From Prorocentrum cordatum (Eukaryota), in assembly GCA_963575745.1 (NCBI GenBank), contig CAUYUJ010000087.1:1-64000 (forward strand): 64,000 bases of DNA, read 5' to 3'. Below the pieces are notes generated by a model. That model was given only the letters and a program-made list of their open reading frames with translations, had not been told where the DNA came from and searched no databases. The number at the start of each line of letters is the position of its first letter. The stretch's first letter is position 1. Positions 16,732 to 52,657 of the stretch are shown here, piece by piece. The translations under genes were made by a program, and so were the position numbers.

Positions 16732-16779
16732 CAGCCCACTGTGGGCGCCATGGCGTCCTCCTGGTGCACGGCATGGCTT

Positions 16780-19700: not shown

Positions 19701-20762
19701 TACAACATCAACGCGCTTCCGTGCCTGTCGTACCTCGCGCAGTTCTACTTCATCGTGCCGGCCATCTGGAAGGTCGAGTTCACCTCCATGCACCGCCTGC
19801 TGCGGCTGCCGCCCTCGTCCATGCGCAAGGCTGACATCCTGTCGATGAGCGCGTGGTGCGGCTCCCCGTCGCCGATTGGCCTCTTCCCATACACGCTCGC
19901 GGCGATGATGCGCTCGGCGGAGAACACGGTCCGCGGATGGGAAGCCCACCTTCACCACCTTCATGAAGCTGCCGTGGAACATGTCCCACTGATTGACGTG
20001 ATCAAGGGCAACTGGTCGCCGCCGTGGTGGCGGACGCGGAGGGCGATCGTTCAGAACTACGCCATGATCACGGACGCTTACGGCCAGCTGGACATACCCA
20101 GACCGACGCTCGACGTGCTCACGGTCCCGATCCCGAGCAGGTACCTGAAGATCGCGAAGTCGGCGATGACCCTGGAGACGACGACGGCGGCAGCGGCCAC
20201 CCCCACCAGGAAGCCCAAGCGCCAGGCCACGGCCGCCGCTTCGCTCCGTGGCTCGCTGTACCCCGAGGACCTGGTGGCCACCATCCACCGGCGGCTGCGC
20301 AGGTGGGGAGTCGAGTGATCGCTGCCCGAGCTGCGCGAGAGGTGGCCTCCGCTGCGTAGCAAGCTGACGGAGGTCCGCCCTGCTTGGATGTGGTCGTGGA
20401 TCCGCACCGCGGTCAACGGCTGGACGACATCTCGTCGCATGAGCGCCGTCATCGACGCGCGTCATTGCCTCTTCGGCTGCGACGAGGAGGACGCGCTCGA
20501 GCACTACGTCGTCTGCCCGATCCTCAGGGCGATGACTGCGGGCGACGCTGGAGCGGACTCCCTGGGCAACGGCGCCGAGCTCCTCGGCCTCGGCGACGAG
20601 CAGTACCACGCAAAGAGACCCATCACGGATTGCATCTACGCGGTCGGCCTCATGTGCCAGTGCTACCACATCCAGAAGCACCGCATGGACGTGGGCCTGG
20701 ACGCTGGAGCTGACCAACGGGCTGGTGTGAGACTGGCCGCTCTGCACCGCATGCAAGCATAG
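16780..20762 (+). pseudogene. LINE ORF2: APE endonuclease, reverse transcriptase, C-terminal Zn knuckle; one frameshift (~17315) and one stop (20316-20318)
   Basis: APE WNARGL, QEVH, GDFN, IDRIF, SDHAP; RT AGPDQ, QKGF, DFRQAFPS, QGCPLS, CADD, KYLG; CLFGC..EHYVVC in ORF 20388-20762, in frame with 17316-20318. Confidence 0.93.
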
Positions 20763-23024: not shown

Positions 23025-24890
23025 ATTCGGCACACCCCTCACACGCTTCGTGGCCCCATAGGGAACTCCACCAAAGGCCTCAGTGGCAGCGCCCGCATAC
23101 AGTTCCACCCCCCTTTCGCTGCACCCCTCATAATGATAGGCTGCGAACCCCGCAAACGTGTTCGCACAACCTCACATCACGAAAACTTGTTTGGTTTTCG
23201 CGATGCGAGCACTGAGTTTAAATCCCACCCCAGCGTGCATCCTCCAGCACCAATTGATTCTGAACCAGATCTGGATCACACCAGGCATACAATGTGTCAC
23301 TGACCATTTTTGCATATTCGCCTGTTCCAAGAGGCATACCGTGACAGACGCAGATTGCTTTTTGGCAAAATTTTCATCGCACAGAGGATAATCGGTTCAT
23401 TTCGCGGGTAAAAAATCGTTGCCCCATAGGGAACTCCACCGAAGGCCCCCAATGGCAGCGCCCACATGCGGTTCCATTTTCCATGTCGGCACACCACTCA
23501 CACGTTTCGTGGCCCCACAGGGAACTCCACCGAAGTCCCCAGCGGCAGCGACAGCAAGCAGTTCCACCCCCATTTCGGCACACCCCTTAAACGTTTCATG
23601 GTCTCGATGGGAGCCCCACCGAAGGCCCCAATGGCATCGCCCGCGCAGTTCCACCCTCCTTGTCGGCACACCCTTCACACGTGTCGTGGCCCCAGGTGGA
23701 GCTCCACCGAAGGCCTCACTGGCAGCGCCCATATGCCGTACCCCCATGTCGGTGCACCCCACACACGTTTCGTGGCCACAGAGGGAGCAGCACCGAAGGC
23801 CCCAGTGGCAGCGCCTGCATGCAGTTCCACCCCCGTGGCTCCATAGGGAGATCCACCGAAGGCCCTGTGGCAGCGCCAGCGTAGAGTTCCACCCCCATGT
23901 CGGTGCACCTTTCACACGCTTCGTGGCCCCATGGGGAGCTCCACCGAAGGCCCCAGTGGCAGCGCCTGCATGCAGTCCCACCCCCAGGTCGGCACACCCG
24001 TCACACGTTTCGCGCCCGCCATGTCGACGCACCGTTCACACGGTTCGTGGCCCCATATGGGAGCCCCACCGAAGGCTTCATTGACAGCGCCCACATGTTG
24101 TTCCACCTTGCAGTTTGGCACATGTCGTACACGTGTTGTGGAACCATAGGGAGGTCCACCGAAGGCCCCATTGGCAGCGCCCGCATGCAGTTCGCCCCCA
24201 TGTCCGCCCACCTTTTACACGTTTCGTGGCCTCCTGGGGCGTTCCACATAAGGCCCCAGTGGCAGCGCCCGCACGCAGTTCCACCCTCCGGTTCGGCACA
24301 CCCTTCGCATGTGCCGTGGCTTCATAGGAGCTCCACCGAAGACCCCAGTGGCCACCCACATGCAGTTCCACCCCCATTTCGGCACACCGTTTACACGCTT
24401 CGTGGCCTTATAGGGAGTTCCACTAAAGGCCCCAGTGGATGCGCCCGCATGCAGTTCCACCCCTATGGTCCCATAGGGAGCTCTACCCAAGGCCCCAGCG
24501 GCAGCGCCAATATCAGTGCATCCCTCGGACGCTTCACGACCCCATAGGGAGCTCCACCGAAGGCCCCAGTGGCAAGCCCCGCACGTGGTTCCACCCTCCA
24601 TGTCGATCCCCCTCACACGTTCCGTGGCCCGATAAGGCTATGCATTAGGGAGCTCCACCTAAGGCTCCAGGGACAGCGCCCGCATGCGGTCCCACTCGCT
24701 ATGTCGGCACACTTCGCACACGCTCCGTGGCCCCATAGGGGGGCTCCACCGAAGGCCACAGTAGCCCTTGTTGCTGGCCCCCCTCCGATGTGTTCCCCCC
24801 GCGATGCTCGAAGGTCTCACTGCACCCGCCAGATTTCAGCACACAGCTTGCGCGCTCCGTGGCCCCATAAGGAGATCCACCGAAGATGGT
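23025..24890. repeat. ~88-90-bp satellite (family B), about 18 copies, interrupted at ~23110-23415
   Basis: CGTGGCCCCATAGGGAGCTCCACCGAAGGCCCCAGTGGCAGCGCCCGCATGCAGTTCCACCCC recurring. Confidence 0.92.
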
Positions 24891-29719: not shown

Positions 29720-30262
29720 GCCTGGAGGGTTGCGATCTACGAAATTCTCGCCACTTTCGAAGGCTGCTTGGGATGGGCAGCACAGTGCCGCCCCACGCAG
29801 ATTCAGATTAGACCTCGCCATCCCTGGGGAGGCTGCAATCCGCGAAACCGTCGCCACATTCGAAGGCTGCTGGGAGGTGCAGCGGAGCAGACCGACATTC
29901 GACCTCGCCATCCTGGGGGGGGGCTGCGATCGGCGAAACCGTCGCCACTTTCGAGAGCTCCTGGGGGGCCCAGCGCAGCGACACCCCACGCCGACCGTAA
30001 CTATACCTCGACACCCCTGGCGGGGGGGGGATTACGAAACAGTCAACACTTTCGAGGACTGCTGAGGGGGGGCAGCACAATGACGCCCCACGCGAACTCA
30101 TACTAAACCTCGCCATCCTTGGGGGGGGGCTTTGATCTGCAAAACTGCCGCCACTTTCGAGGGCTGCTGGGGGGGCAGCACAGTGACGCCCGCCCCAGAC
30201 TCAGACTTTACCTCGCCACCCCCGGGGGGCGAAACTGTCGCCATTTTCGAGGGCTGCTGAGG
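29720..30262. repeat. Family A satellite, about 5 copies
   Basis: Same unit as 20834-22145. Confidence 0.85.
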
Positions 30263-30590
30263 TCCGACTCGGCCAGGTCCAACTCGGCCGGTCGAGCTCG
30301 TCCGGTCGAACTCGGCCTGGTCGAACTCGGCCAGGTCGAATTCGGCACGGGCTGGACTCGGCCAGGGCCGACTCGGCCAGGTCCGACTCGGCCTGTCGAG
30401 CTCGGCAAGGTTCAACTCGGCCAGCGCCCTGGCTGTAGCGCTGCAGCCGGGGACGACATGCTAACCAATCTCGGCCAGGTCGAACTCGACCAGGTCCAAC
30501 TCGGCCGGGTCCAATTTGGCCAGGTCGAACTCGGCCGGGCCCAATCCGGGCAGGTCAATTCGGCCGGGTCGAACTCGGCTGGTCGAGTCG
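30263..30590. repeat. 15-bp minisatellite (AACTCGGCCAGGTCG)n
   Basis: Direct reading. Confidence 0.9.
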
Positions 30591-31428
30591 TCGGCATGGT
30601 CGTCGTCGTCGTCATGCAGATATTTCTCGGCGCCCCGACATTTCCTCGCTCGCTACGCACATGGGCCGTGGTGAAGACACGAAGGTGTTTCAAAATTGTA
30701 CCGATACTGTGTGATTTTCGTGTGTTCAGGGCCTCTCCACCCTGCGTCTCGTGCTGTTTGTTGGCGGCTTCGCTGTTTCGTTTACCTGCCCGTACTGGGC
30801 TTCGCCCGCGCCCGTGGGTGCGCAGGCGCCGCGCCCTGGCAGCTGCCACGGTCCCCGCCGGCGGGGCTGGCCGCGCCAGCTCATTTAGCGATGAGACCCG
30901 TCCGGCCCTGAGTGGCCCCTCGGTTTTCCTTCCCCTCTGCGGCCGCCCTGTTCTGTTCTCCTCTCGCGCATGCTGGTCAATTCGCTACAACGGTGCGCCC
31001 CCGTTTAGGCTGTTCGCTGGCGCTGAGGCCTCAGCCTCGCCGCCGAAGAGTGTGTTCAGGGCATTTGCGGCCTGGCCCTGCTCCAAATTTCCTGAGGCGT
31101 CTTGGCCACATCTCCAGTTGCAGTCGGGGCGTCTTCATTGCTCCTTGGGGCGTGTTGCCGCTTCTGGGCAGCTTTTTCAGGGCGTCTGGGGGTTGCCTGT
31201 CGCGAGCGGCCGCCGATCCGGTGCTTCCTACAAGGGTTCCTTCCTACAAGGGAGGATGGCCTTCAGGCCGCGGCCCAATGCATTCTCACGACGGATCGTG
31301 GCTCTCCGTTGTATTCCTACCCCTGATGGGCCCCGGAACGCGGGGGGACCTGAGAAATGTCATAATCTCGGCGGATATGCTTCTTGTTTTGTGGCCACCC
31401 CCGCTTTTTGACCACCCCCAAGAACCAG

Positions 31429-31497: not shown

Positions 31498-31603
31498 GCG
31501 CGCGGCTCCGAGGTTCAAGGTGAATCCAGGCGCGGCGATGACGGCGCTCGCGGAGAATCGCATACGGCTCAACGATTCTCAACGCTTCGCGTATCTCCAC
31601 AGG

Positions 31604-31641
31604 TCCGTAGCCCCCTCTGGCTCAAGCCGCTCTGGCTCGAG
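31604..31641 (+). other. Relict dinoflagellate spliced leader plus one truncated tandem relict
   Basis: TCCGTAGCCCCCTCTGGCTCAAG-CCGCTCTGGCTCGAG versus canonical DCCGTAGCCATTTTGGCTCAAG and relict CCATTTTGGCTCAAG. Confidence 0.8.
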
Positions 31642-33380
31642 GTTGGTCGGCGCGACCTGGGTCCGCTGCCTCCGGGGCCGGCCGGATGGAGCCGCCCTGG
31701 GCGCGGCGGCGGCTGCGCCGCGCCGCCGGCCCACCGGCGCCCGCGCCGCTCCAGCGCCGCCCCCTGGCCAGCCGCCCGCTGGGTGGGCCGCCGGCCCTGC
31801 GGCCGCTGACGCTGGCTTGGCCGGCGACCGCTCGCGGCGCCTGCCCTCCGGGCGGGCCGCCGCTGGCGCGGCCGCCGCCGCCGCCGCCGCCTCCGGCGGC
31901 GCGGCCCTGCCGCTGCCGCTGCCGCCTGCCCGGCCGCCGCTGCCGCGGCCGCCTGCGGCGCTGCCCTGGACCCCGCGGAGGCCGCGGCGGCCGCCGGCCT
32001 CTGGCTGGCCGTCGCCGCTGGGGCCCGCGCGGCCCTGCTGGCCGCGCGCGCGGCCGCGCCCCATGTTGCCGCGGCCGCCCACTCTGCGGCGGGCGCGGGT
32101 GGCTCCGCGTTGGCGGCGGCAGCAGCGTCGGGCGGCGCCTCGGCCGCTGCGGCCGCGCCGCCGCCCGAGGGCGGCACCCTCTCGGGCCCTGCTTCCGCCG
32201 CCGCCGCCGCCGCCTCCGGCGGCGCGGCCTTGGGCGCAGCAGCCGCCTGCCCGGCCGCCGCTGCTGCTGCCGCCGCCGCCGCCACCGCTGCTGCCGCCGC
32301 CGCCGGCTCCCCTCCGGCGGCGGCGGCGGCGCCGTGGCCGGCGTGGCGGCCGCTGTCGCGGAACCCGCTGCCGCCGCCACTGCTGCCGCCGCTGCCGGCT
32401 CCCCGCCGGCGGCGGCGGCGGCTGGCGCGGTGGCCTGCGCCGCCGCGGCGGCGCGTGGCTTGCCCGACGGCTTCCCCACGGCCAGCCCTGCGGCCAGCCC
32501 CCCGGCCAGCCCGACTGCCAGCCCACGGCCAGCCCCAAGGCCAGCCTGGCGGCCTGCCCCCCGTGCTGCCCGACTGCCAGCCCCACGGCCCGCCCGACGG
32601 CCAGCCCGCAGGCCCGCCCCGTGGCCAGCCCGACTGCCAGCCCCACGGCCGGCCCCGTGGCTTGCCCTGCGGCCCGCCCCACGGCCAGCCCGACGGCCCG
32701 CCCGACTGCCAGCCCCACGGCCGGTCCCGACTGCCAGCCCGACGGCCAGCCCCGAGGCCAGCCCGACTGCCAGCCCGCGGCCAGCCCGTTGGCCCGCCCC
32801 GTGGCCAGCCCAACTGCCAGCCCCGCGGGCAGCCACACGGCCAGCCCCACGGCCAGCCCAACAGCCAGCCCGACGGCCAGCCCGACTGCCAGCCCCACGG
32901 CCAGCCCCGAGGCCAGCCCCACGGCCAGCCCCACGGCCAGCCGGACGGCTAGCCCCACGGCCAGCCGGACGACCAGCCCGACGGCCAGCCCCGAGGCCGG
33001 CCCGACTGCCAGCTCTGCGGCCGGCCCCACGGCCAGCCCCACGGCCAGCCCGACTGCCAGCCCCACGGCCAGCCCTACGGCCAACACGACTGGCAGCCCC
33101 ACGGCCAGCCCGACGGTCAGCCCGACTGCCAGCCCAACGGCCAGCCCGACTGCCACCCCCACGGCCAGTCCGACGGCCAGCCCGACGGCCAGCCCCGAGG
33201 CCAGCCTGACGACCAGCCCCGCGGCCAGCCCGACTGCCAGCCCGACTGCCTGGCCGGCCGCCAGGCCCACGGCCCGCTTGACGGCCAGCCCGTTGGCCCG
33301 CCCCACGGCCAGCCCCACGGCCAGCCCCACAGCCAGCCCGACGGCGAGCTCGACTGCCAGCCCCACGGCCAGTCCCAGTA
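31642..33380 (+). pseudogene. Retrocopy of an mRNA encoding (PTAS)n mucin-like repeats
   Basis: Follows the SL relicts; 12-bp CCCACGGCCAGC/CCGACTGCCAGC units at 32470-33378; upstream part extremely GC-rich and decayed. Confidence 0.6.
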
Positions 33381-33389
33381 CACTATGAG

Positions 33390-35980
33390 CAAGACGGGGA
33401 CAGCGTCCTGATCACCGGGCTTCCAGGCGAGCTGATTCTGACCCTCCTCGCGGGAGGCGTGGAACAACATTCCATCGACTCATGCACCCCCTTTTCAGCG
33501 CCCGTGCAGCTGCGCCTTCAAGACGGCCCTCGTGCCCGCAGGGCGCCATGAATGGTGGCGTAACCTCATGGAATACACCCCCTTCGGGAGCTCCTCAGTG
33601 CGGGACCAGTGGCCATACCTCGGCGTCGTGGCGGTGTCGCGCGCGGCGGAAGGTGAACAGCCACCCCCCAGGGGAGCGGCTCACTAAGGCGCAAGACGAC
33701 GCCCTCACAAGAGGAACATGGGAGCGCCCCCTCCCCAAGATGAGGGACAGGGCCATGGCCCTCCACCTAGCAAAAATGTCCCCCACCCGCACAGCCGCGG
33801 CATGGAACTCATACCTGGTCTCCCTTGCCCCCATACGCGGCCCACTACTCCAACCCCGACGTCGTACAAGAACGTGTCTCACGTGCGCAGCTCAGGGCCG
33901 CATTTGGGCTTGCTGCGGCGTCGTGGGTCCCTGACTTCATCCTTACGGGGCTAGGTATACGCTTCCAAGCGCCGGGCGCCCCAAGGTGCCCCAGTAGCCG
34001 CGGCTCGGGCCGTCCCAGCCAGAGCGCACGCCCTGAACGACTTCTGGGGGCCCATGCCAGCCAGAAAGCGCGCCAGAACTCGGTGGAACAAGCTATTGAA
34101 GTGGGCAGCCGAAGCCGCACCGCAACCAGACACGTCCCGACCCAAACCCAGAGTTATCACAGAGCGCAAGGCAGCGCTAGCACTCAACCGTGCAAGTGAG
34201 CAACACGAGCTACTGGAAGGAAAACACCTTGGGAAGGTTGTCTACGCCGCGGCATGGGCACAAATGCACAGCTCGCTGTTCACCAAATGGCTCACTGAAA
34301 CCAGTCAAAAGAGGAGATGGCACCCCTCGAACGGGGAGGAGTGGGGCCCACTGGCCCACTGCGCGTCCTACACGGAGGCCCACCACGTCATCCGCATACT
34401 GCGCAACGGCCTTCCAGGCTCTGCAAGGCGGAGAAGTGAAGTCGAGCGGCCCCCGCATCAATGTCCCTGCGGCGCGCGCGCCAAGTGCGTCTGGATCACA
34501 GCCGGGCCCGGCGACGAAGGCGACGCCTGGTGCGCCAGATGCAGAGGTCACGGGCCACACTCCTCTGCGCTTCGGCAGCTACTCGATCCGAACTCCCTGC
34601 CCATCGCACTACGGGGCCAGGCCGAAGCCTACGCCCACACTCAGGGCAGCCTACGGGCCCCCACCAGAGCGGGCCCAGGTGGTCATTGTCTCCTCTGCGG
34701 GCTTGGGGAGGCGTCGACAGAGCACGCGTGGCACTGGTGCCCGGCCGCCGCCCTGGCTTGGTACACCGCACGGGGCCCGGGCCATCCCGAGCCCCTTGCA
34801 CGGGCCATCACCTGCAACGGTGACCACCAACCCCTCCTTGCGAAGGTGCTTCACCAGATCTCCTTCAGATATTGCGTCAACCTTACCGCCACCCCCCTCG
34901 AGGCCAGTGATGCGGCCAGACTCATTCTTCAGGGCATCGTCGCCGCGGACACCGATCAGCAAGGCGACAGCGACGATGACGTCCACGACGGCGACGAGCC
35001 CCCGAGGCACGACAACCCGGACGAGACCGCCGTTTGGGCAACAATGCAAGATACCTGCCCCACGTGCCACCCGCGGCAGGACCATTTGCGGAGCCGCCAG
35101 GCCACACATGACCCGCCACGCGCGACGCGCCGGAGGAGAGGTGCGCAGGCTCCCGGTCGTCACCAGCCACTGCCGCGCAGGAGACAAGCTTGCAGTTATC
35201 CAGGCCACCCAGATGCGCGCGGGGTGGATGCTGCCCGGCCGAGGCTGGTTCCCCTGCCCCAGAACTGACAACAACCCCACGGCTAACTGGACGTCAGCAT
35301 ACTGCCGAGACTGTCGCGCACACACCACAACGCTGACGGCGAACACCGACCTTGAACCAGGGGACAAAATAACCGTCCGCAGCTCCCCCTTCCCAGACAC
35401 AGACAGCACCCAATGGCCATACGAAGTCACCTTCGATGGCGGCGCCCGAAGAATCGACGGCCGCACCAGGGTCTCAGGCGCAGGCACGATTTTGTGGCAC
35501 CACGACCCAGCGACAGGTACCCCCAGAATAGTGGCGGTTGCCATAGTAGCGCCCCCCGGATGCAGCAGCGCACAGATGGCCGAGGTAGTCGGCTGCCGCG
35601 CTGGACTTGCACTCCTCCCCCACCTCCGCGGCCCCCTGCGGGCCGCCAGGATTGTTGGGGGCAACTTAGCGGCCATCCGATATGGCGCTTGCACGGCCAG
35701 GCACAGGAGGCTACACCTGGCTCAGCAAATGGAGGACGCCCTCGCTCAGGCGGAGAACATTGGCTGGGTGCTTTCTTGGCAGGCCGTGAGGCGCCGCCTG
35801 AATAAGGCTGCAGATAGCCTTCGCCGCCCTTGGGGCGTTCTGGGCGGATGCTTTACTCAACGCAGGCGACCTTCGCAGTCCACACTCACATACATTGGGC
35901 AGAAGCCCGCACCGCCCTCCCAGCCCACTTCCCAACCGCGCAAGGTCTAGACATCGACCTTTGCGACCCGATGGCGTGTG
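33390..35980 (+). pseudogene. C-terminal part of LINE-type pol: RT thumb, Zn finger, RNase H
   Basis: WPYLGVV (~33610), AAAWNSYLVSLAPYAAHY (compare AARAYNINALPCLSYLAQFY in the other LINE), CLLCG..STEHAWHWC, RNase H VTFDGG (35435), AQMAE (35582), IVGGN, RRRLNKAADSL. Confidence 0.85.
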
Positions 35981-36146
35981 CCGCCGCCGCCGCCTTCCGC
36001 TTGGCCCCCCCCCCCCCCCCTCGCCCCTGGTCGCCCCTGGTCGCTGATCGAACGATCGCCCCGCCCGCCGAGGCCCACCCCGCAGCGGGCCGCGGCCCCC
36101 CAGCTTTTCAAAGTACTCTAACGGCGATCAGCTGCGACGCTGGAGG

Positions 36147-37088
36147 ATGCCCGAACGCAAGTGCAATCAAGGGCCGCTGGCTCGCTGGCCAGCGCACGAG
36201 GCATGTCGCCCAAACGGCCCCATACCCGCAGATGGCCCCCTCCCCTTCCGTGCCCGCGAATGCCCCTGGCTGCGTCGGGCACACTTCAACAGCGAATGGC
36301 GCCGGTGGTGCGAGCTCTGTCAGAAGCACTGTGACGGGAAGGAGCACCTGCTACAGTGGGACCACTGGCACGAAGGTGACAGGCAGTGGGAGAACGGGTG
36401 GCCCGACCCCCAGGATTTCATTCCTGCGGGCAACCTGTGGACCATGACGAACGGAAGGGAGTATGACCACGTCCACGACTGCAGAATCAAGGGGTACCCA
36501 TGGCGCGGGTGGAAGACGACGGAGCCGGAGAAGGTCCAAGGGCAACCCTACCTCCCCGGCTGGTCTTTCCCAGACGACTGGGATCACGTTCCCATCAAGT
36601 TTCCCTACAGGGATGACGACTTCGACTTTGCCACCCCTTCAGGCACCATCCATTCCACAAGGGCGCGCCCTCGCCAGCAGCTGAGGAGGACCTGGGCAAG
36701 GACGACCAGGGGTGGAGCGAGACCGATGGACGGGCCTCTTGACAGAGACACCCCCGGCCACGCCACCGCCCACCATCTGCACCCCCCAATCAGACACCCC
36801 ACCGGAGAGGACATGCCCAACGCCTCCAGCAGAGCATCGTCTCAGGAGTCAGCCGACAGATCACGCACGGAGGCACCCGAGGGAGAAGATCGCTTCGGCT
36901 ACGGAGACACGCCCCCATCAGGGGTGAGGGGGGTAATGCTGGAGTCGCCGGCCGCGGCTGCGGCCGATGCCGTCAGGCAGTATACTCCGCCCCCGCCAGC
37001 TGCGGAATCGCTCAGTTCCGTCTTCACGCACCACTGGGACAGATCCCAGATGCCGCCCTCCTCCCGCCACACTGGGCGCAGGATCTAA
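36147..37088 (+). pseudogene. Cargo N-terminal region with a C2H2/matrin-like Zn finger
   Basis: ATG directly after the 29-bp motif; WCELCQKHCDGKEHLLQWDH. Confidence 0.5.
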
Positions 37089-37199
37089 GGCAAAGAGGAC
37101 GGGCTCTCGAAAGCCTGGCCTGGACCGCGTGCACGGCGTCGACCGAGACCGTCTGGGGCAATTCCGTCAAGGCCAGGACAGACCTCATCAGAAGGCAGA

Positions 37200-39700
37200 G
37201 CTGAGCCCTGGTAGTTTCCGTCACCCCAATCGATGAGAACTCAGAGTGCGATACCCTCGACCGCTTCCAGCTGAGGAACGCCTTTCCACCCCAAGACGGG
37301 AAGGTGCTGCTACATCTACATTGGCCCTCGGCGTTCAGAGTCCTCCTCAAGGGTCAGGACGCGGGACAGGACGCGCACGTCCTCCTTCTCAGCCTCACCA
37401 ACCCAGCAGTGGACCAAGTCGCTTCCGTCAAACTTCTGAGCCCCCCGACCTCGGAGGCACCATCCTTCCGGGCGACTGCCAGGCACTGGGTTTCCCAACG
37501 GGCTCCCGGTACCCCAGCAACGAATGCATCGTCGTTCACAACACAGACAAGTTCGGAGTATCCCACGCAGATGACAGCATCGACCGGCCCACCTACGTAG
37601 GTGAACCATGGTACAGGCTGGACAGGGCGCCCTCCATGATTCAGTTTTGGCGGATCTCGGCTGCAATCACCGAGATCTACAGGCTGCAGCAGATCCCCCG
37701 CGATCTCATTGGCACCCCCCTGGACGTCATCACCTACCTCCTCACCTTCCGTACTGCCGACAAAAGGGACAAGGCTATCGCCAACGACGTCCTCAGCACC
37801 GCCAAGTGTGGGCAGGCTCTCCAGGCGCGTGCCAAAGCCACCCTGGAAGTCCGCTTCCCCTGCACCGACCTACCTGCGCCCGGTGCCGCCTCGGCGACGC
37901 CCACTCACCCCGCCGGACTTCCAGCCCCCCCCCCCCCCCCTTTCACCGACGCAGAGGTGGAGGACGCCACCGGGCAGGTGTTCCAGCGCGCCCGTGACCT
38001 ACCAGCACCGAAATCCCTGGAGGACGGAGCCAAGCGCCACAGTCTCAACCGCGACGCCACAAGGGACCTGGCAGCCTCCACCCGGCACCACGTGACGATC
38101 GCACATGGCCCCCCTGGCACAGGTAAGACAACTTTCTCGGTCGCAACCATGGACACATGGGCGGGCTCGCTCTTCCCCGGGTCGTCGGTCGCTCTGGCGG
38201 CAGGTTCCAACGCGGCCGCCGACCAGCCGGCACTGGCCCTACGCGCCGCTCACAAAGACAACAAACTGGCCTCCAGCACGGGATTCCCGTCCAAGTGCGC
38301 GCGCCTCGCCAAGGACTTTTAAGGTGGCCAAGGAGCTTGCCGGGCTCACCCCAGGAGGACACTACCAGGGGGCCAACGGCAGACTCCCCTACGAAGGCGG
38401 TTCACCCTCCAAGGACTTCCCCGCCTTCAGGACTCAGCTGCTCGAAGACGCGAAGACCGTCATAGCCACGCACGAATCTGCTGAAGCACTAAAGAAGGCC
38501 GCCCCAGTTGCCCTTCTCATCATAGACGAGGCAGGGCAGGCGCACGAGCTCACGGCGGCCATGTCCTTGGACAGTGTCATTCGCTCAGGAGGACACCTAG
38601 TGCTGGTCGGCGACCCCAAGCAGCTCCCCCCCACGGTCATCTCCAGAAAGGCAGCAGACCATGGGTTGTGCCTCTCCATCTTCGACCGTCTCCACCAGGC
38701 GTTAGGGGGGCACCAGTCAGCCGTGATACAGCTCAGCCTGTGTTACCGCCTGCACCCCCTGCTGCTGGCCTGGCCCAACTGGGTCTTCTACACCAACACA
38801 ATGCAAACCGGACTAGCTGACCCTCTGACTCAGAGGCCCCTAGTCAACGAACGGTCTACCATGGCAGGGTTTCCAGCCCTGGAGCAACGTCAGACTCGAA
38901 TAGCTATCGCATGCCGCCCGCACCACCAGCGACGACATGCACCAGATGCTGCGCAACCTGGACCCGGGAGAGCAACCCGCAGGAGAGCGGCACCGGTTCC
39001 TACTGGTCGCCAACCCTCCCCGGGAGGTTACATCCAAGCTACACGCAGGATGCGCCAACCTGCTGGAGGCAGCGCAGACGGTAGACATCACACGCGCCCT
39101 CCCCCCCGCAATGGAGGAGGGAGTCACGGTTCGGGCGGTCATCGGCCACCAGCTGCAGCGCGCCATCCTCGAGAACGGATGGCCCCAGAGCGCCTGCAGC
39201 GTCAGCGGCACACTCAGGCAGGCCAAGGCCAAAGGCAAAGGGAAAGGGAAGGACGAAATAAGCAAAGGGAAGGGCCCCGCCGCCCACCCCCCATCACGCC
39301 CCCACGACACAAGCGACTACGCCAGCGTCTTCGAGCAGAAAGACTCAGGACCCACGGGCATCTCCTTGCGGTTCCCAGGCGTTCGGCGCGTTGCAGAGGA
39401 TCACCTTGCAACCGGCAGGCTCACCCTCTCGACTATTGAGTCCAGCCAGGGCGGCGAAGCGGACCTGGTCATCTTCCTGACAACCAGGTCCAACAGGTGG
39501 CATGACTGGGGTTTCATGGACAACGCCAACAGGGTGAACGTGGCAATCACCAGAGCCACGCGCAACGTGATCATCATCGGTGACGGAAGGATGTTTGCCG
39601 CGGCCACGGGATCTCGCCTCCGTGAGCTCTCCGAGTACGGCCGCTTCGCCAAGCTGCGGGTACGCTTCCAGCACCCGGAGCACATCGGAAGTCGATGGAC
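37200..39700 (+). pseudogene. Upf1/DNA2/NAM7-like superfamily 1 helicase (AAA_11/AAA_12 type), frameshifted
   Basis: HGPPGTGKT (38104-38130), GSNAAAD, IIDEAGQA (38525), LVGDPKQLPP, SIFDRL, YRLHP, STIESSQGGEAD, GFMDNANRVNVAITRA (~39510-39560). Confidence 0.93.
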
Positions 39701-42700
39701 CCTCACTGTCGACGAGGGATTCGACCCCATCAAGGACCTCACCTCCTGGACCCCTGAATCCCCCTCGCACGCAGGAGACGAAGTCATCAAGGGGCTGGAC
39801 AGCGCGATAGTGAAAGCCCGAGCCTCAATGGAGAAGAACTTCGCAGACAAGATTGCAGCTCCGCTGGATACAGAATTTTCATGGACCTGCCTTGGAGACG
39901 CCATACGCAGCAGCCTGCAGAAACTCGTCGAAGACCCCGCCATGGGGGTGGTCATATACACCGTCTCTGGCCTACACCCCCACCAGTACTCCATGGCCGA
40001 CACACCAAGGCAGCCGGGCCTATTTGACCGCAAGGCATGGAGTCACTTAGGGTTCTGCTGCGACGTAGAAATGGGCATAGACGCCAGCAACCTCGTCTAC
40101 AACTTGACGTGGGCAGCCCTGGTATGGTTCCTCGGGCTGGGCACCCCCTGGGACGACAAGAGCCTAGCCGTCCCTGACGAGTCGCTCCCTTCCCTGCCCA
40201 GGGCGAAGGGCGTCAGCCACCGCCCGAAGGGCGCTAGCCGTTGCACCCCCCCCCCCCCCCCCCGAGGTCCTACACCAGTTTCCAGGGGCATGGAGCCAAG
40301 AGACGGGGAGATGCAGGAGGCACCGCGCACACCCAGGTATGCAGCACCTGAAGTCCCGACTTCGCACTGGCCAAGCCAACTCAGAGCTAAGACGCTCCCT
40401 TCTCAGCAGCGACGGCCGCCCCCTGGACACCCCCACACTCAGAGTCCTCCTCGTTGTCATGATGATCCAGCTGCGCGAGCCTCGGGCGACGCTCTGGCCC
40501 CTCCCACATCCAGAGGCCACTGGGGACATCATAGAAGCAGCCATGGGCATCTGCTTCCCTCGGCAGAACGTCCACCTCGAGCACAGAAACACCTTCGCAA
40601 GCGCATGGGGTTTCCAGCTGAGTGATCTAACCCCCCTACACGGGAAATTCGAGGACGCCATCAAGCACATCAGCACGCTCGCCACGTACGCCCACCACCA
40701 CAAGGTTGCAGCCGAGCACGGGTGCCCAAAAACCTGAGCCGGCATGCTGAAAAGCAAGTTCCCCCTGGAGGCCCCCATGTGGGTGCTAGAGGAGCTAGTC
40801 CAACCAGCCGCGGTCAGTCCCCTGGGCAAGAGCAAGTGCTCCATCTGCACTCTCCACAATGAACTCAGCGGGCCAGAGGAAGGGCTCGGATGCCCAGGCT
40901 CAATGCAGACCTGGAGTATATCGGAGGAGGAATTGCCATGTCCAACAGGCGGCTCGACGATGACTCCCCCGCTTCCCCGGCCCCCAGAAAACTTCTTATC
41001 CCGCCCAGAGTGAACGACGACAGGTTCCGCGTCGAGCAGGAAGATGGCCGCTTCGATTGCGATGGGGATGACTGCCCCAAAAATGGGACCAGGGGCACAG
41101 CCGGCACCTGGGAGGACGACGACACAAGGGAACTCCTCGCACAGAACCGCTCCCAAGCTCACTTGCAAGGCAAGAACTTCAGGCGGCTGTGCGAGCAGTG
41201 CTGGGCCAAGTCCGTGGATAAGAAAGGCTTCGAGGCCCCCCTCGCCCCATGCGACTGCGGCAACAAGAAGTCACTACCGCAGCGTCTGCAGGCATACAAG
41301 CGCGCAATGGATGAGACACGTCATAAGAAGAAGTCACGCACACTCCCGTCCTTGGATCGGCTCCCGATTGGATACGGGCGCCTTGACACGGCCCCGACCC
41401 CCACCAGCCTTTGCGACCTCGTCATGAAAGCCCCCTCAGCCACAGCCCCCGGGCCACTGGCACCACCCTACCTGCTCACAAGCTGTCAGACGGAAGGTTC
41501 GGGCTCGATTCGCCCCTCACGGGCACCTACTCTGCCCAATGCGACACCTGCCCAACAGGATCACCCTTGTTGGAGTGGGCGGTAAGCAGCCCAGCATTAG
41601 GCTGCTTCTTGTGGCGCCCAGAGCCCGAAGCATCCACCGTCTCCGAGACCGGGCGACGGCCTTGGGACCTCATGCCCACTCTTTGGACCCAGCGGCAGTG
41701 GCACGCCGGCTGGGCACGCAGGCGGTGCCTCATCCACATCTGGAACGTGGCCCCAGGCACGCTTGACCACATACTGGACCAGCAGTTCTCACGCGTATAC
41801 CCCACGGCACCAGCCAAGCGGGCAGCAACAGCAGAAGTGCAGACGGAGCGCCACGACATCAGCGTCTACCTCACTCCGGATTGTGCTAACGCTGCAGCCA
41901 CGGATGCATACACAAAGCCACCCGCCCCAACCAGAGCGCCGACCCCTCCTACCAGCACGGGCCAGGGCGGCCCCGTCGGCCCGTCGGGGAGAGTAACGGG
42001 TCAGGAGCTGCCGCACGAGACATCAAATCCATGTTCCCTGACATCTCCCCGCCGGCTGGGCCCGCCCTACCAACCCACTCCACCTCTGGGCTCACAGGGA
42101 AGGATTCAGGCTGCGCCTTACGCTCATTGGTCAAGTACCTCCTAGAGTGGAACCCCACCATTTACGGGAAATTGATGGAGTACGCGGAGCAATACGGCGT
42201 CGGAATACCGGGCGATAAGACCAACGAAGGGTCTTGGCCCCCCCAATGTCTTCGCCAATTCCTGGCCCACATCTACGGAGATACGATCCCCGATAACTGC
42301 CACACACACACACACACACGCACACCGGCATCCCATGGGACAGCCAGCGGGCCGCGGCGGCACGAGTAGCGCACCACCTAACGAGGGCCAACGTGATGCA
42401 TGAGACCAGGTGGCGTTGATACGCCGCCGACCTAGCCGAGCAGCGGGGCGAGTGCCCCCTCCGCCAGCGGCTCAGCACCCCATTACAATACCTCATGGGA
42501 ATGGATCCCACGGCCCTCGCCGACGGCACCATCAGAGAGCTGGCCAACCGAGATCCATTTCAGACGGACACGGACTACGTTCTGGCTGAACAGGACAGAC
42601 GCGGCAGCAGACACCCCCCCAGTAGACAGCCACGGCCCAGTATGGGAGGCAGCACCAGGCCGCCCCTCCAGGGCAGATCTACAGACCCCAGGCGACGACG

Positions 42701-43615
42701 GGGCCAACGACCCTCCAGCGGAAGGGCAAGGCTCTTGCGACCAGGCAGGCAAGGCCGAGGGTGAGCTGGATGCACCCGACTGGGATGAGGACGCGGCAAG
42801 CGAAGCAGCCACAGCCAAAGAAGCGAGCCCTGTTGCTAGCCCGACACCAGTCGCGGACGAAGGCGAGGAGGAAGTCTCCTCCGATTTACTACGCGCTTTT
42901 AAAAAACACGCCCCCAAAGGGCAAATCCTGGACCCCCCACTCACAGACCGTCGATCGAAATGCCGCCCTGGCGCTTCGGAGTGCCAAAGACAGCTCCGAG
43001 AAGGAAAGCAGCTCGGCCTGGGACATCACGGGGGCCAGGAACGACCGCGCCCTCAGCCGCGCGGCAGGAGACAAAGGGCGCCACCGGCCCGCGTCAGAGG
43101 ACATCAAAGACGGGGAAGGGCGCGCCGCCAAATCACAAAGGGGCAACCCCACGCGAGCGGAGAACAGCGGGACGCCCTGGAGGGACGTCAGGATCGCTCA
43201 GCCACACTACGAGAATCTGAACGACCCCATGGGATGCGGCCCCATGCACAGGCGCACCATCGCAACTGCAGACGTGGAGAGGGACGAGCCCATACAAGAC
43301 ATACTTATACGCTTACAAAAGACGCTGGGAGGCGCGTTCAATGGCATATGGCACGCATGGATTAAGCGGGCTGCCCTGAGGCAGGACCCCAGTGGAGGCC
43401 ACAAGAGCAACCCCAAACTGAACACACCCCAGACGTGCGCAGATTTCCTCGAGGCTTGGAGCAACGCAGGCCATGATGCTTACCGGATGGATAGTGAACT
43501 CGGGCTCGGCGTAAACTGGGCAGCAGTCAGGGACAAGCGCGCGAACTCCGAGCGCCACGACGCCCGCGCGCACGCCCCGCGTGACTACGGCAGCAGCAAC
43601 AAGCCCGCCCCATGA
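39700..43615 (+). pseudogene. Remaining cargo coding region (possible RNase III-like motif, Cys-rich fingers, unknown domains)
   Basis: Overlapping protein-like frames; TGDIIEAAMG (~40520-40550), CSIC..CPG, CDGDDC..LCEQC..CDC, final stop at 43615. Confidence 0.5.
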
Positions 43616-46199
43616 GCAACCGAGGGCAGAGCGGTCGCTCCCGCGGCTGCACAGGACCGCTGGGCTGGAGCCATCGGTACAGCCACCCCCAGCCAGTGGC
43701 AGGGCTGGCAGGAATGGACCGCGTGGGATCGGCGCGAAGCCCCACGGACGGACTCAGATTGGAAAGGAAGGGACAAGCGGCACTTCCCTAGGGGGGACGA
43801 CCGATACTCGGACAAGCGCGCCCGCTGGTGGGCAAAAGACGACTCCTACACCCAAGGCTGACTGCGCCGGACACGGCCCACCTCAGCGTCCCAGGGTTTC
43901 CTGCCCAAGGAAACCTGCCCCCCTCATCGGCTCCTCTCTGCCCCGAAGGGGCCAGTTTCACTCACTTCGCCGCGCCCGGCTCAGGCCGCAATACCTGGGG
44001 GCAACCTCCGCTGGGGCGTAGGCTAGCCCCACATCTCACCCACGGCGCGGCATAGCTAGACATCCCACACTGGACAAGTGGACCTGCCCTCCTTTTCGGG
44101 TCCGACGCGGAGAGCCCCCCCCCCCCCCCCAGCACCCGACATCTCACCCTCTCGGGCACGGCGGGGCCGGCCCGGCCCGGGCAGACAGGCCCCTGGCCCA
44201 TGCACTTTGCTGTCCGACGACGACAGCCAACCCGCCCGCCTGAGGCGGGGGGTCGGCCACTGAACCCCCCCCCTGCGCGGCGGCAGGCTCGACCTAGCCA
44301 GGTTACAGTTTTGGCTAGTACTGACTTCAGCGGCGGCCAGCTGCGACCCTGGAGGACCAACACCCACCATCCCCGCTGAGGCATCACTCTCCGCGGGAAC
44401 GGACCATCGCCCAGCGCAGCCTGAGGTCCATGCAGGACCCCACCTCCCTCGGCGTCATAACCCCCCAAGGCCCACCCACCATTTCATTGTCTTGAGCGGC
44501 GATCAGCTGCGACCCTGGAGGAACCAACAACCACTTCCCCTGCCCCACGGGCGCGGGGCCAGACCGAGGGGAGGGGCGGCTTTCGCCCCCCGCTCTTGGC
44601 CCCGGGGCCCGCCCGACGTTCTGACCGACGTTGGTGCTGTTGCCCCACCTCCCTGGGCCGTCTGTGCCCCTCGCTGCACGTGTTTTGTCTCATCGCGCTC
44701 AGCGGTGGTGAGCTGCGACCCTGGAGGGCCACGCGGTGTTTGTTGACGTTCTGGGAGCTTTGGCGGAAGTGCCAGCGGCGGGCTGGGTCTGACTTTGCGC
44801 CCGGTGGCCCTGCGCCTACCACTGTGCTGCCCCCCCCAGGCGCATCGCCCTTCGACAGCGGCACACCCCGCTCGACCTGTCTCTTGGGGGCCCACCTGCT
44901 CTGGTCTTGTTTCGCCATCACGGCACCACCACCTCCAGTGCAGCTCCCCCTCCCTTTCCTCGCTGGCGACGCCGGCGGGCTTCCCCCCCACTCAGTGGCC
45001 AGGCCTCGCCGGCACGCGCTGCGTGGCTCACAGTCGCTCGGTTACCCCCCGTGCGCTGTGGGGTGGTCTGACAGGGGCTGGCCTTGGTGCAGAGTGGCAC
45101 AGCCTTTCGCAGCAGGTGCAGCCCTACGGCTCACGACTGCTCAGCCTGTCCTGTCTGGCTGGCTCAGGTCGTCAGGGCGTTCGGAGCCTGGCGCCCCATC
45201 GGCGACTCACTCCACTGGCCCCCCACTTGCCATCCCCCAGCACGACGGGCTTGACCATGGTGGCCCTCGTCTCTCCTGTGTGGGTTGCGCTATGGCAAGC
45301 TTTGAATTCCGAGACACTTTGTCCTGTGCACGTGCTCGAGCTTGCAGGGCAATGTCCGCCGTCAGCTCCACCCCCCTCAGCTTCGCAGCTGCTGTCTGAG
45401 TGGGCCGGCCAGCTTGCGCCTGTCTTAGCTAATTCGCTTAGTTCGCGTCCCGGACTTTGCTCTTGCCGCCTGACCGTCGTCTCGCGGCCGCGACCGAAAA
45501 TGCATTCCCACCAGCCCTGCGGGGAATGGCGGATGCGGCGGATAAGGCCGTCCACGGTGGCCTTCGGCGTACACCAAGCGGCTGCCGCCGTGCAGTTCCA
45601 CCCTGGACGCCCCACCTTGCTGGCGATGTTCTCCCCCACCAGCTTGGCTTCACGCAGCGCTTCCGCTGGCGCCCGTGCAGCCGCGCGTGGATGGCCCCCT
45701 GCAGGATCGGCGGCTAGTCATTTTGCGCGGGTTGGCGGCCCCTGGAGGCCAGCCCGCTTCGAGTGGTTCAGCCTTCGCAGCCTCGGCCGCCCTCCGGGTC
45801 CACCCCACCCCCGGCTTGGTATTCGACGTTTCTCGGCGGAGCAGCACAGCTGGCGCGCACACGCCGTTGGCGCGGCTTGGGCGTGGCGCCCCACTGGCGA
45901 CGGCCCATCGCTTACCACGTCTGGTCGCCACAGCGCGTAACACAGAATTCCTTTGCATTTTGCCGCAGGGCTGCACGTTGCTCGAGCTTCCCTGGGCGTT
46001 CCAGTTCAGCCACCCCGCAGCCGCCCCAGCTGCCGCGTTTGTGAGCTGGCCCGGCTGGCTAGTGTTGCTCGCCGCCTGCGCGTTCGCTGGTGGCCGCGAC
46101 CAAACAGTATCCCCACCAGCCCATCCAGAAACGATGTCCAGGCGAGTTGAGGTGATCAGGGAAGGGCGGCAGCAAAGAGGAGGACGGCCGAACCGTGCA

Positions 46200-46372
46200 A
46201 AGGAGTGAGGAGGAGAAGGAGGAGGTGGATGGATGGATGGATGGATGGATGGATGAGGGAGTGGGAAGAAAGAGAATGAATAGGATGAGGAGGAGGCGGA
46301 GGAGGAGGAGGAGGAGAAGGAAGAGAAGGAGTGGGAGCAGGAAGGAGGAACAGGAGGAGGAGGAGGAGGGCA
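46200..46372. repeat. (GGAT)n and purine-rich simple repeats
   Basis: Direct reading. Confidence 0.85.
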
Positions 46373-46379
46373 AGCACAA

Positions 46380-46872
46380 GGGCCAGAGGTCTCTTGAATG
46401 CCTCTCAGAGCCTCTTGGGGTATCTCTTGGGCGATTATTGGTGGCCTTTTGGGACGTTTTGGGGGTCTCTTGGCGATCCTGGGGGGCTCTTCGGGGTCTT
46501 GGGTGCCTCGGGGGGGCCTTCTGGGGCCGCTTAGGGTATTTTTGGGGGCCTCTTGGGGCCATTTTGGGGCCTCTTGGGGCCTCCTGGGCGCTTTTGGGGG
46601 CCATCTTGGAAGAGATCGGTCAACGAAGGGGGGTCCTTAGTTACGCTCCCCCCCCAGGAGGCCAAAATGGCGCCAAAACCATTGTAAAATCAATGGTTGT
46701 GGCTTCCTCGCCGAGGCCGTTTTGGACGCTCTAACTACCCGCGGCCCCCCCCCGTCCAGGTCCACGGGGAGGGGGTAGGGGGAGGGGTAAACCCCTCCCC
46801 GAAGGGGAAGAGGGAGGGATGGAAGAGGAAACGCCCTAAACCACCGACGCCCAGAGGGCTGGTGGGATTTAT
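46380..46872 (+). repeat. Family D repeat with 3' stem-loop
   Basis: TCTTGGG units; terminal CCACC-GAC-GCCC-AGA-GGGC-T-GGTGG-GATT. Confidence 0.75.
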
Positions 46873-46879
46873 AAACAAC

Positions 46880-47410
46880 TGTGCGCGGCTTTAACGCGAC
46901 AGCCACAGTTCAAAAATTGCCTGCCCTCACTCCGTGAAACTCTTGCGGATGTATAAGACGAGGGCGCGCGGCGCGAAGGCGAGAAGCACAGTTTGAAAAT
47001 CGCCCGCCCTCCATAATTATGTAAATCGGTTGCCAACTCTTGACTTTTAGGATCATAGATGGCGAGGAAGTCTCAGGCGGAACGCCCGGCCCGCCCTTTC
47101 GACCAGCCTCGGGGTTCGATAGGGAGGAATTACTTGTAAGAAAAATAAATGTAAGAGGAGAAGGAGGAGGAGGAGGAGGAGGAGGAGGAGGAGGAGGACG
47201 AGGAGGAGGAGGAGGAGGAGGAGGAGGAGGAGGAGGAGAAGGAATAATGAGGAGGAGGAGGAGGACGAGGAGGAACGAGGAGGAAGAGGAGGAGGAGGGA
47301 GGGGAGGGAGGGAGGGAGGGAGGAATTGAGGGAGGGAGGGAGAAAGAAGGAGGAGCAGGAGGAGAAGGCGGAAGAGGGGTGAGGGAGAGAGGGAGGGAGG
47401 GAGGGAGGCG
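46880..47410 (+). repeat. Family C fragment followed by a (GGA)n tract
   Basis: Matches 28720-29150 (CCGTGAAACTCTTGC, CCCTTTCGACCAGCCTCGGGG). Confidence 0.75.
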
Positions 47411-47429
47411 CGCCCTCTCGGCGTCGCGC

Positions 47430-50850: not shown

Positions 50851-51005
50851 TCTACAGAAAAAGTCCCAGAAACCTTGTGTGTAAAAAGCAGTGCGCGGAG
50901 GGGGCCGGATATTTTTCAAACGTCATCAGGGGAGAGAGGAGAGTAGTTTGAGGGAGTTTCTGTGGAACTCACGTCATCCTCACCCCCGGCGCGAAGAGCA
51001 CGAGT

Positions 51006-52333
51006 CCAGAGCGGCCTCCGGCACCGTTTCCGGACAGATCCGGTGGATCCGCTGGATCCGCTGGATCCGGTGACGAATCCCAAACCGGCGCCCTCGCTTG
51101 AGACATCCTCACAAAACCGGCCCCGGGGGAGGTGCCCAGAGGAGCCCAGAGCGGCCTCCGGCACCGTTTCCGGACAGATCCGGTGGATCCGCTGGATCCG
51201 CTGGATCCGGTGACGAATCCCAAACCGGCGCCCTCGCTTGAGACATCCTCACAAAACCGGCCCCGGGGGAGGTGCCCAGAGGAGCCCAGAGCGGCCTCCG
51301 GCACCGTTTCCGGACAGATCCGGTGGATCCGCTGGATCCGCTGGATCCGGTGACGAATCCCAAACCGGCGCCCTCGCTTGAGACATCCTCACAAAACCGG
51401 CCCCGGGGGAGGTGCCCAGAGGAGCCCAGAGCGGCCTCCGGCACCGTTTCCGGACAGATCCGGTGGATCCGCTGGATCCGCTGGATCCGGTGACGAATCC
51501 CAAACCGGCGCCCTCGCTTGAGACATCCTCACAAAACCGGCCCCGGGGGAGGTGCCCAGAGGAGCCCAGAGCGGCCTCCGGCACCGTTTCCGGACAGATC
51601 CGGTGGATCCGCTGGATCCGCTGGATCCGGTGACGAATCCCAAACCGGCGCCCTCGCTTGAGACATCCTCACAAAACCGGCCCCGGGGAGGTGCCCAGAG
51701 GAGCCCAGAGCGGCCTCCGGCACCGTTTCCGGACAGATCCGCTGGATCCGCTGGATCCGCTGGATCCGGTGACGAATCCCAAACCGGCGCCCTCGCTTGA
51801 GACATCCTCACAAAACCGGCCCCGGGGGAGGTGCCCAGAGGAGCCCAGAGCGGCCTCCGGCACCGTTTCCGGACATCCGCTGGATCCGCTGGATCCGGTG
51901 ACGAATCCCAAACCGGCGCCCTCGCTGAGACATCCTCACAAAACCGGCCCCGGGGGAGGTGCCCAGAGGAGCCCAGAGCGGCCTCCGGCACCGTTTCCGG
52001 ACAGATCCGGTGGATCCGCTGGATCCGCTGGCTCCGGTGACGAATCCCAAACCGGCGCCCTCGCTTGAGACATCCTCACAAAACCGGCCCCGGGGGAGGT
52101 GCCCAGAGGAGCCCAGAGCGGCCTCCGGCACCGTTTCCGGACAGATCCGGTGGATCCGCTGATCCGCTGGATCCGGTGACGAATCCCAAACCGGCGCCCT
52201 CGCTTGAGACATCCTCACAAAACCGGCCCCGGGGGAGGTGCCCAGAGGAGCCCAGAGCGGCATCCGGCACCGTTTCCGGACAGATCCGGACAGATCCGGT
52301 GGATCCGCGCCCCGGGGGAGGTGCCCAGAGGAG
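51006..52333. repeat. Highly homogeneous 140-bp satellite, about 9.5 copies
   Basis: GCGGCCTCCG at 51011, 51151, 51291, 51431, 51571..; each unit has three GGATCC in 9-bp subrepeats. Confidence 0.97.
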
Positions 52334-52557
52334 GAATGAGGAGGAGGAGGAGGAGGAGGAGGAGGAGGAGGAGGAGGAGGAGGAGGAGAAGATGATGGAG
52401 CTGCGGGGTGGAGGAGGACAGACGGAGGCAAGAGAAGGATGGAGGAGGAGGAGGAGGAGGAGGAGGAGGAGGAGGAGGAGGAGGAACCTCATCCTCACCC
52501 TCGCCAACAAGCGCACGCACCTTCTTCTATATACAGAAACTCCCGATCAACCGCAGA

Positions 52558-52657
52558 NNNNNNNNNNNNNNNNNNNNNNNNNNNNNNNNNNNNNNNNNNN
52601 NNNNNNNNNNNNNNNNNNNNNNNNNNNNNNNNNNNNNNNNNNNNNNNNNNNNNNNNN
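52558..52657. other. Assembly gap (100 N) flanked by (GAG)n tracts
   Basis: Direct reading. Confidence 0.99.

Follow-up and report, generated by a model that had tools for sequence, protein, structure and literature searches.

The window analysed here, a stretch of 64,000 nucleotides (nt) of Prorocentrum cordatum DNA (assembly GCA_963575745.1, contig CAUYUJ010000087.1, positions 1 to 64,000 of the forward strand), contains on its + strand the tail of a long interspersed nuclear element (LINE) polymerase gene followed by a decayed giant gene for a Upf1-like helicase. The polymerase tail (pol, or open reading frame 2, ORF2) occupies 33,385–35,950 and is separated by a 196-nt spacer (35,951–36,146) from the helicase gene, designated ORF3, at 36,147–43,615; downstream are a stretch that could be a 3′ untranslated region (UTR; 43,616–44,238, + strand) and a repeat, block X (44,239–46,660, + strand). 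The region probably represents a single 5′-truncated, later decayed insertion from a lineage of LINEs that carry a third cistron beyond pol in their RNA.

Genes and features of the locus

The pol tail is frameshifted, with five frame changes in 2.4 kb, and was delimited by collinear tblastn alignments. P0223 (780 amino acids, aa), which was found by database search with the tail, is collinear with 33,568–35,815, and residues 718–1,521 of P0224 are collinear with 33,496–35,867. A profile built from P0223 and the window pieces matches P0224 (1,579 aa) with an E-value of 2e-146 and P0225 (1,855 aa) with an E-value of 2e-60; in both of these proteins a YVDD motif is visible and an SDH motif is seen. 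All three homologues end 35–60 residues past RNase H. The present-frame stop of the tail is the TAG at 35,948–35,950, and comparison with P0224 suggests that pol originally ended near 36,000. As predicted from the homologues, the polymerase is of the type with an apurinic/apyrimidinic endonuclease (APE), reverse transcriptase (RT), Cys-Cys-His-Cys (CCHC) knuckle and RNase H, the endonuclease part lying outside the window copy.

The preliminary description of this DNA, made from the sequence alone, had placed a LINE-type CCHC knuckle and RNase H upstream of the helicase gene, and both assignments are supported. The zinc knuckle, CX2CX8HX4C at 34,687–34,740 (+ strand), was read from the sequence and is kept in P0223, P0224 and P0225, the tail itself being collinear with the RT-bearing P0224 and P0225. 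The RNase H domain (35,414–35,836, + strand) shares 48% identity (E = 1e-69) with the domain encoded by the metagenomic locus L001 described below. Searches of 33,389–35,950 against Pfam and Protein Data Bank (PDB) sequences returned neither domain, even at E-values up to 10, and the zf-RVT and zf-CCHC models of Pfam were not detected at the knuckle. The third catalytic Asp of the RNase H is replaced by Gly in the window (VGGNL at 35,654), and the intact homologue P0223 keeps the D-E-D-D catalytic set. An AlphaFold model of the P0223 domain, made from a 7-sequence alignment, has a mean confidence (pLDDT) of 85, and its best Foldseek matches are RNase HI structures (3hst, E = 7e-10, bacterial/archaeal-type); an Atlas feature search assigned the domain to RVT_3 at 0.92. 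An RNase HI fold is confirmed for the pol-tail domain at the level of this predicted structure, via the intact homologue.

The spacer between the two genes is C-rich, has no A-tract and carries a run of 13 C at 36,008–36,020. A short gap had been recognised in the preliminary description, where its size was given as ~170 bp; counted from the TAG to the ATG it is the 196 nt given above. A 30-nt motif at 36,118–36,147 directly adjoins the ORF3 ATG. Its 19-nt core was found by motif search eight times in the window, at 6,966, 8,733, 8,904, 9,136, 36,129, 44,338, 44,504 and 44,710, in all cases on the + strand, against 0.02 occurrences expected. Three of these lie in each of the two copies of block X in the window, one is that at 6,966 and one that at the ORF3 ATG. 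Only the motif is conserved among the eight copies, their flanks being different, and C-runs are found ~55–100 nt upstream of three of them. The motif could act in cis for the retroelement, or it could be a signal used throughout the genome.

ORF3 begins with the ATG at 36,147–36,149 and ends with the TGA at 43,613–43,615, both read directly, but it is not an open frame: at least seven frame changes and three in-frame stops, that is, at least 10 lesions in 7.5 kb, interrupt it. The GC content of third codon positions, 0.73–0.77, tracks the homologous frame. The intact protein P0073 (ENA, 2,945 aa) is collinear with the window from residue 2 at 36,183 through residue 1,848 at 41,803. P0222, a near-identical cluster member of P0073 from a separate contig (10 differences in 2,945 residues), extends the correspondence towards the C-terminus, where its residues 2,821–2,905 align weakly with 43,304–43,555 (tblastn, E = 0.001) within a conserved C-terminal block of ORF3 (43,304–43,612, + strand). 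On the basis of this collinearity, 36,147–43,615 is regarded as the decayed remnant of a gene that stands by itself, lacks introns and encodes a protein of ~2,500–2,950 aa, which bears out the ~7.5 kb same-strand coding region of the preliminary description. The helicase motifs reported there are likewise borne out by Pfam matches and by direct reading, as is the similar decay of the two genes.

Three parts of the ORF3 product can be distinguished in addition to the C-terminal block, and the protein also has Cys-rich stretches. The N-terminal domain (36,147–36,660, + strand) was defined by aligning the window with both L001 and P0073, a comparison of three sequences in which M1, RWP, C55, C58, H67, H73 and GFPDP are invariant, and includes a zinc-finger-like C-x2-C...H-x5-H arrangement at 36,309–36,366. 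The superfamily 1 (SF1) helicase core, with motifs I to VI, extends over 38,107–39,557 (+ strand) and is distributed over three frames; AAA_11 and AAA_12 were matched in three + frames between 37,237 and 40,622 with E-values of 6e-6, 9e-17 and 4e-15. Motifs read directly are GPPGTGKT (motif I) at 38,107, DEAGQ at 38,525, GDPKQLPP at 38,609, SSQGGEAD at 39,441 and NVAITRA at 39,537. Among the 98 + strand ORFs over 28–47 kb, no domain recognisable to Pfam was found beyond the helicase. The Viral_helicase1 model reached an E-value of 0.05 at best on the window helicase, and a word-indexed search returned generic Upf1-like relatives (senataxin, ZGRF1) with 32–43% identity over the core. For P0073, in which only the helicase domains AAA_11, AAA_12, AAA_30 and AAA_19 are detected by Pfam (E ≤ 0.01), the best relatives of solved structure are Upf1/NAM7 (E = 3e-21), then chains annotated as ‘5′-3′ RNA helicase-like protein’, then Sen1, SMUBP-2 and DNA2. 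The predicted helicase is Upf1-like at the superfamily level.

The best-conserved family-specific block is the post-helicase domain (39,831–40,890, + strand), which includes DRKAWSHLG at 40,026 and GDIIEAAMG at 40,522. No relative of this domain was found in Pfam (E ≤ 10), among PDB profiles or in the Atlas (scores ≤ 0.77), nor, for its block A3, in JGI metagenomes or IMG/VR; a GTDB match to A3 (L006) was dismissed by tblastn as a chance match of 9–10 residues. The AlphaFold model is all-helical with a pLDDT of 50, too poor for a fold search. An RNase III-like identity, considered on the basis of a resemblance in motifs, was unsupported by Pfam, PDB-profile, Atlas and AlphaFold results alike. 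As far as these comparisons reach, the family has at least two conserved domains for which no relatives are detectable.

An exhaustive HMMER search with the ORF at 38,904–40,622 gave 1,631 matches at E ≤ 0.001. Of these, 51 had E ≤ 1e-10, each representing a cluster at 50% identity, and eight had E ≤ 1e-30. Many of the 51 representatives cover non-helicase parts alone, and the top matches run past the helicase motifs into family-specific sequence. The ten top matches that were looked up comprise four short fragments with 65–87% identity, labelled ‘Pyramimonas sp. CCMP1952’ in EukProt, two gene models that are more distant and bear a Prorocentrum cordatum label, and four from ENA or Logan contigs. 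P0085, P0088 and P0097 match an out-of-frame continuation at 40,290–40,622 with 57–84% identity; since both frames appear open in this GC-rich family, ORF callers working on short contigs would give the wrong frame. P0081 (878 aa), labelled Prorocentrum cordatum, consists of a helicase C-terminus, the post-helicase domain and a further C-terminal stretch with motifs reminiscent of C5 cytosine methyltransferases; the protein may be a chimera with another retroelement.

Linkage of pol and ORF3

JGI metagenome contigs were scanned with the pol-tail alignment, and five loci (L001–L005) were obtained; the pol tail (A7) had no relative in GTDB genomes or IMG/VR. Only one of the five, L001 (3,647 bp), extends more than ~500 bp past the end of pol, so that the linkage could be examined once. 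L001 carries a pol tail at 16–2,622 with its stop at 2,653–2,655, a pyrimidine-rich spacer of 235 nt, and an ATG at 2,891 that opens an ORF continuing to the contig end. From Met1, this ORF aligns with ORF3 of the window at 28% identity (BLASTP, E = 5e-18) and with P0073 residues 2–177 (E = 1e-8). The order and strand of pol, spacer and ORF3 are common to the window and L001, with a spacing of 200–235 nt, and the two spacers are not alignable at the nucleotide level. Since the RNase H regions are only 48% identical, the two loci are taken as different insertions, that is, as old and independent members of one family.

Ahead of the ATG, a stop closes the ORF3 frame in the window as well as in L001, so that ORF3 is a cistron of its own and does not extend pol by read-through. 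Identity in ORF3 among the window, L001 and P0073 is only 28–34%, and its start, its end and the order of its blocks are nevertheless kept. The recurrence in L001 argues that the helicase gene is a conserved third ORF, neither a chance neighbour nor a recent retrocopy, and two independent loci make the linkage of pol and ORF3 a probable one, with considerable confidence. Whether the helicase and RNase H would be neighbours elsewhere, and whether the helicase might be a recent retrocopy of a host gene, were the two questions on which the preliminary description had made its proposal depend. The RNase H-bearing pol tail, stop, 235-nt spacer and ORF3 N-terminus on one strand of L001 answer the one, and the low ORF3 identity combined with a preserved start, end and block order the other. 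The gene layout shown by the aligned loci and homologues comprises a short spacer of ~100–235 nt without an A-tail and then a predicted ORF of 2,500–2,950 aa that starts from a conserved Met.

Several observations concern the number and the age of the copies. When short contigs from one DNA sequencing run (X1; Logan, ≥80% identity) were placed on 30–48 kb, 11,457 were obtained, representing all identity classes and giving full cover of 33.6–45.6 kb; this fits a multicopy, diverged family. The depths in this run are not copy numbers, and the contigs, at ~300 bp, cannot bridge the ORF2–ORF3 junction. Joints in run X1 that connect 36,025–36,028 to 40,244 are regarded as artefacts, their 20-nt sides lying inside poly-C runs. 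A listing of sequencing runs that contain the region gave one DNA run, which shares a fraction of 0.29 of its words, but no RNA run. Lesions are of similar density in the two genes, with five frame changes in the 2.4 kb of the pol tail and at least 10 lesions in the 7.5 kb of ORF3, and the + strand skew (A>T, C>G) is uniform across 34–44 kb; together these indicate one insertion. The window copy is non-functional.

The 3′ side and the surrounding DNA

Block X is collinear with 8,629–10,695 at 71–74% identity (blastn), and that second copy is preceded by neither ORF2 nor ORF3. The duplication of the 3′ region had thus been correctly noted in the preliminary description, although the end assigned to it, 46,162, falls short of the block, which reaches 46,660. 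AT skew turns from positive to -0.18 at 44–46 kb, unlike in both ORFs. Block X may be the 3′ UTR of the element, in which case its second copy would be a severely 5′-truncated insertion; the better chance, by about two to one in our judgement, is that it is an unrelated repeat. Of the retroelement of over 13 kb that had been proposed for this locus, the succession of pol tail and ORF3 start recurs in L001, and the stretch at 43.6–46.2 kb is only a possible part.

The window is GC-rich (55–77% per 2-kb bin) and composed largely of repeats and satellites. Upstream of the pol tail, GC rises to 77% in 31,500–33,377, a segment that includes runs of GCC/CCG triplets at 31,856–32,408. A 12-bp unit is repeated in ~75 tandem copies at 32,474–33,377; this array borders immediately on the truncated 5′ end of the LINE copy, and it is not picked up again downstream of the region. 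In run X1 the summed depth is ~4,000–19,000 at 30,000–30,600 and 45,626–47,428, compared with tens to hundreds elsewhere, so that very high-copy simple or satellite sequence lies on either side of the element. Satellite arrays with periods of 81 bp, ~86–88 bp and 140 bp are among the sequences at 4,875–5,522, 23,026–24,597 and 50,862–52,387, and an assembly gap of 100 N occupies 52,558–52,657.

Other retroelement sequences are present in the window. A second, intact-looking LINE at 15,110–20,315 (+ strand) has an open frame of 1,056 aa at 17,145–20,315 with an RVT_1 match (E = 1.8e-10) and, by eye, an endonuclease-like start near the end of an overlapping frame at 15,110–17,500. Kinship of the LINE at 17.1–20.3 kb with the pol tail at 33.4–35.9 kb was rejected, as the two are without similarity. 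An ORF at 62,864–63,415 (+ strand) encodes a zf-CCHC zinc knuckle (E = 2e-4) and may be a gag-like piece of another retroelement. Rfam gave no match at E ≤ 0.1 over 30–48 kb, a search for relics of the dinoflagellate spliced leader gave 0 matches, and a repeat search of the window found no long direct repeat flanking the region that could represent LTRs.

Interpretation and comparison with known elements

A number of observations weigh against a LINE insertion with a third cistron. The window copy itself is without the RT core: homology, traced back by eye to ~33,392 against the P0224 and L001 sequences, begins at about residue 670–718 of P0224, past the RT at 523–658, and it is this absence, with homology starting just past the RT, that identifies the copy as 5′-truncated. 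Even in P0224 and P0225 the RVT_1 scores, 28.3 and 28.0 bits, are just below the Pfam gathering threshold of 29.6; P0225 has no RT match in the PDB, and the evidence for APE is a weak match of P0225 to Exo_endo_phos_2 (E = 0.03; 0.033). At the other end, neither a 3′ tail, be it poly-A or a simple repeat, nor a target-site duplication or a 3′ boundary was recognised past ORF3 or block X. The 30-nt motif of the spacer is present in another repeat as well, as a junction between modules or elements might look. Outside the window the linkage depends on a single contig, L001, since L002–L004 break off at most ~480 bp past the last residue with homology to pol, and L005 matches weakly; the comparison comprised the window and L001. 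The contigs that encode P0222 (19,167 bp) and P0224 (17,975 bp) would have room for a composite element of ~15–16 kb.

The junction could alternatively separate two independent mobile elements, a LINE that ends in the C-rich spacer and has inserted site-specifically upstream of a helicase element, or the reverse. The C run and pyrimidine tracts of the spacer could then be a non-A LINE tail, the seven further occurrences of the ATG-adjoining motif in other contexts, all on the + strand, are what a target or module boundary might produce, and the Pfam domains of P0073 are those of a helicase only. Set against this, order, strand and 200–235 nt spacing recur in L001 at 28–48% protein identity, so that targeted nesting would have to have been conserved or repeated; the motif is intact and not split, and the junction showed neither a boundary between elements nor a tail or duplication. 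Such targeted nesting is considered unlikely. Acquisition of ORF3 from the host, as a gene or recent retrocopy picked up once by 3′ transduction and passive here, is very improbable. Elements of the L1 type do transduce their 3′ flanks (PMC6431247, in its passages on transduction), and the dinoflagellate gene models P0081 and P0102 have the helicase and the post-helicase domain, but the transductions reported there span at most 1–3 kb, compared with 7.5–8.8 kb here. Moreover, pol and ORF3 are linked again in a copy that has diverged deeply, the gene lacks introns and is present in many copies, and the interval between the pol stop and its conserved start codon is short and fixed. Large intronless ORFs are also typical of endogenous viruses and other giant elements, and SF1 helicases are reported from virus-like repeats of a prasinophyte (PMC10675990, in the part that concerns these repeats). 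Both genes could accordingly be cargo of such an element, of which the region would be a fragment; this is the least probable origin of those considered, as no viral hallmark gene is found in the 98 + strand ORFs of 28–47 kb, a search of IMG/VR found no relative of either gene, the composition matches that of the flanks, and the pol is of APE-LINE type. A Helitron or Helentron was ruled out, no Rep being found in P0073 by Pfam (E ≤ 0.01) and its best solved relatives being Upf1/NAM7 and not Pif1-type.

If the region is, as we favour, a LINE copy with a third cistron, complete elements would be about 15–19 kb in length. As the frame of ORF3 is closed upstream in the window and in L001, its translation from the element's own RNA would depend on reinitiation or on internal initiation. 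The predicted 5′-3′ helicase would act on the ribonucleoprotein (RNP) of the element itself, where it might unwind or strip a template that is very long and GC-rich while target-primed reverse transcription proceeds; another option is that it would protect an RNA with ~9 kb past the pol stop against RNA silencing or decay that depends on Upf1. A broader proposal can be put forward only tentatively, and we consider it somewhat more likely to fail than to hold. It states that a marine-protist LINE lineage has stably kept an ORF3 of 2,500–2,950 aa across more than 70% protein divergence, that its elements, at ~15–19 kb, may be the largest LINEs described, and that a Upf1-like helicase of the element's own would be needed for propagation. 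In this proposal the helicase would unwind the very long GC-rich template or make its copying more processive, or else it would serve as a decoy for, or an antagonist to, the Upf1-dependent surveillance and silencing of the host, to which an RNA with ~9 kb past the pol stop would otherwise fall prey.

LINEs usually have one or two ORFs and end soon after pol, and host Upf1-family proteins restrict or assist retroelements in other organisms. A LINE lineage that keeps a separate Upf1-like helicase gene of ~9 kb would show that non-LTR elements can be larger, and encode more, than is known so far, and would offer a natural system for studying how retroelement RNPs cope with very long structured templates and how nonsense-mediated decay and silencing act on such RNPs.

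In L1-type LINEs of plants and algae, an archaeal-like RNase H comes behind the RT and the CCHC knuckle, and the element ends shortly past pol. The element described here resembles them in the predicted order of APE, RT, Cys/His knuckle and RNase H, in the bacterial/archaeal-type structures matched by its RNase H and in being present as a 5′-truncated copy; it differs in the 7.5–8.8 kb ORF3 that follows pol and in an RT that scores below the Pfam threshold. With the Upf1-like SF1B helicases (Upf1/NAM7, senataxin/Sen1, IGHMBP2, ZGRF1 and the MOV10 group) the predicted ORF3 product shares the AAA_11 and AAA_12 core with motifs I–VI, at the 32–43% identity given above, whereas P0073 has no Upf1 CH, SEN1 N-terminal or other partner domain detectable by Pfam, and its flanking domains are family-specific. 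Among giant retroelements, the rotifer Terminons and planarian Burro are Penelope-like and Gypsy-like, respectively, and in the relevant passages of the same 2019 review of giant eukaryotic transposons non-LTR elements appear only for 3′ transductions of 1–3 kb (PMC6431247). Like Terminons and Burro, the present element is a retroelement enlarged by extra ORFs; unlike them, it is LINE-type.

In the full-text literature searched, a coverage that excludes supplements and subscription journals, no LINE was found to have been described with an ORF for a Upf1-like helicase. The closest parallel is provided by insect LINEs of the TRAS/R1 and Jockey groups, in which a tobamovirus-like SF1 helicase domain is fused to the C-terminus of ORF2 and has been proposed to suppress silencing or to aid cDNA synthesis, according to the passages on these helicases in the reports concerned (PMC4686597, PMC5563155, PMC6338049). 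Both are non-LTR retrotransposons with an SF1 helicase as an accessory function. In the element described here, however, the helicase is Upf1-like and is predicted to lie mid-way in a separate giant ORF whose frame is closed upstream, and its relatives carry protist or marine-metagenome source labels, as opposed to the insect sources of TRAS/R1 and Jockey. The helicase-bearing LINEs found in the literature are insect elements with small, virus-derived domains fused to ORF2, and the ORF3 layout predicted from the present comparison differs from theirs.

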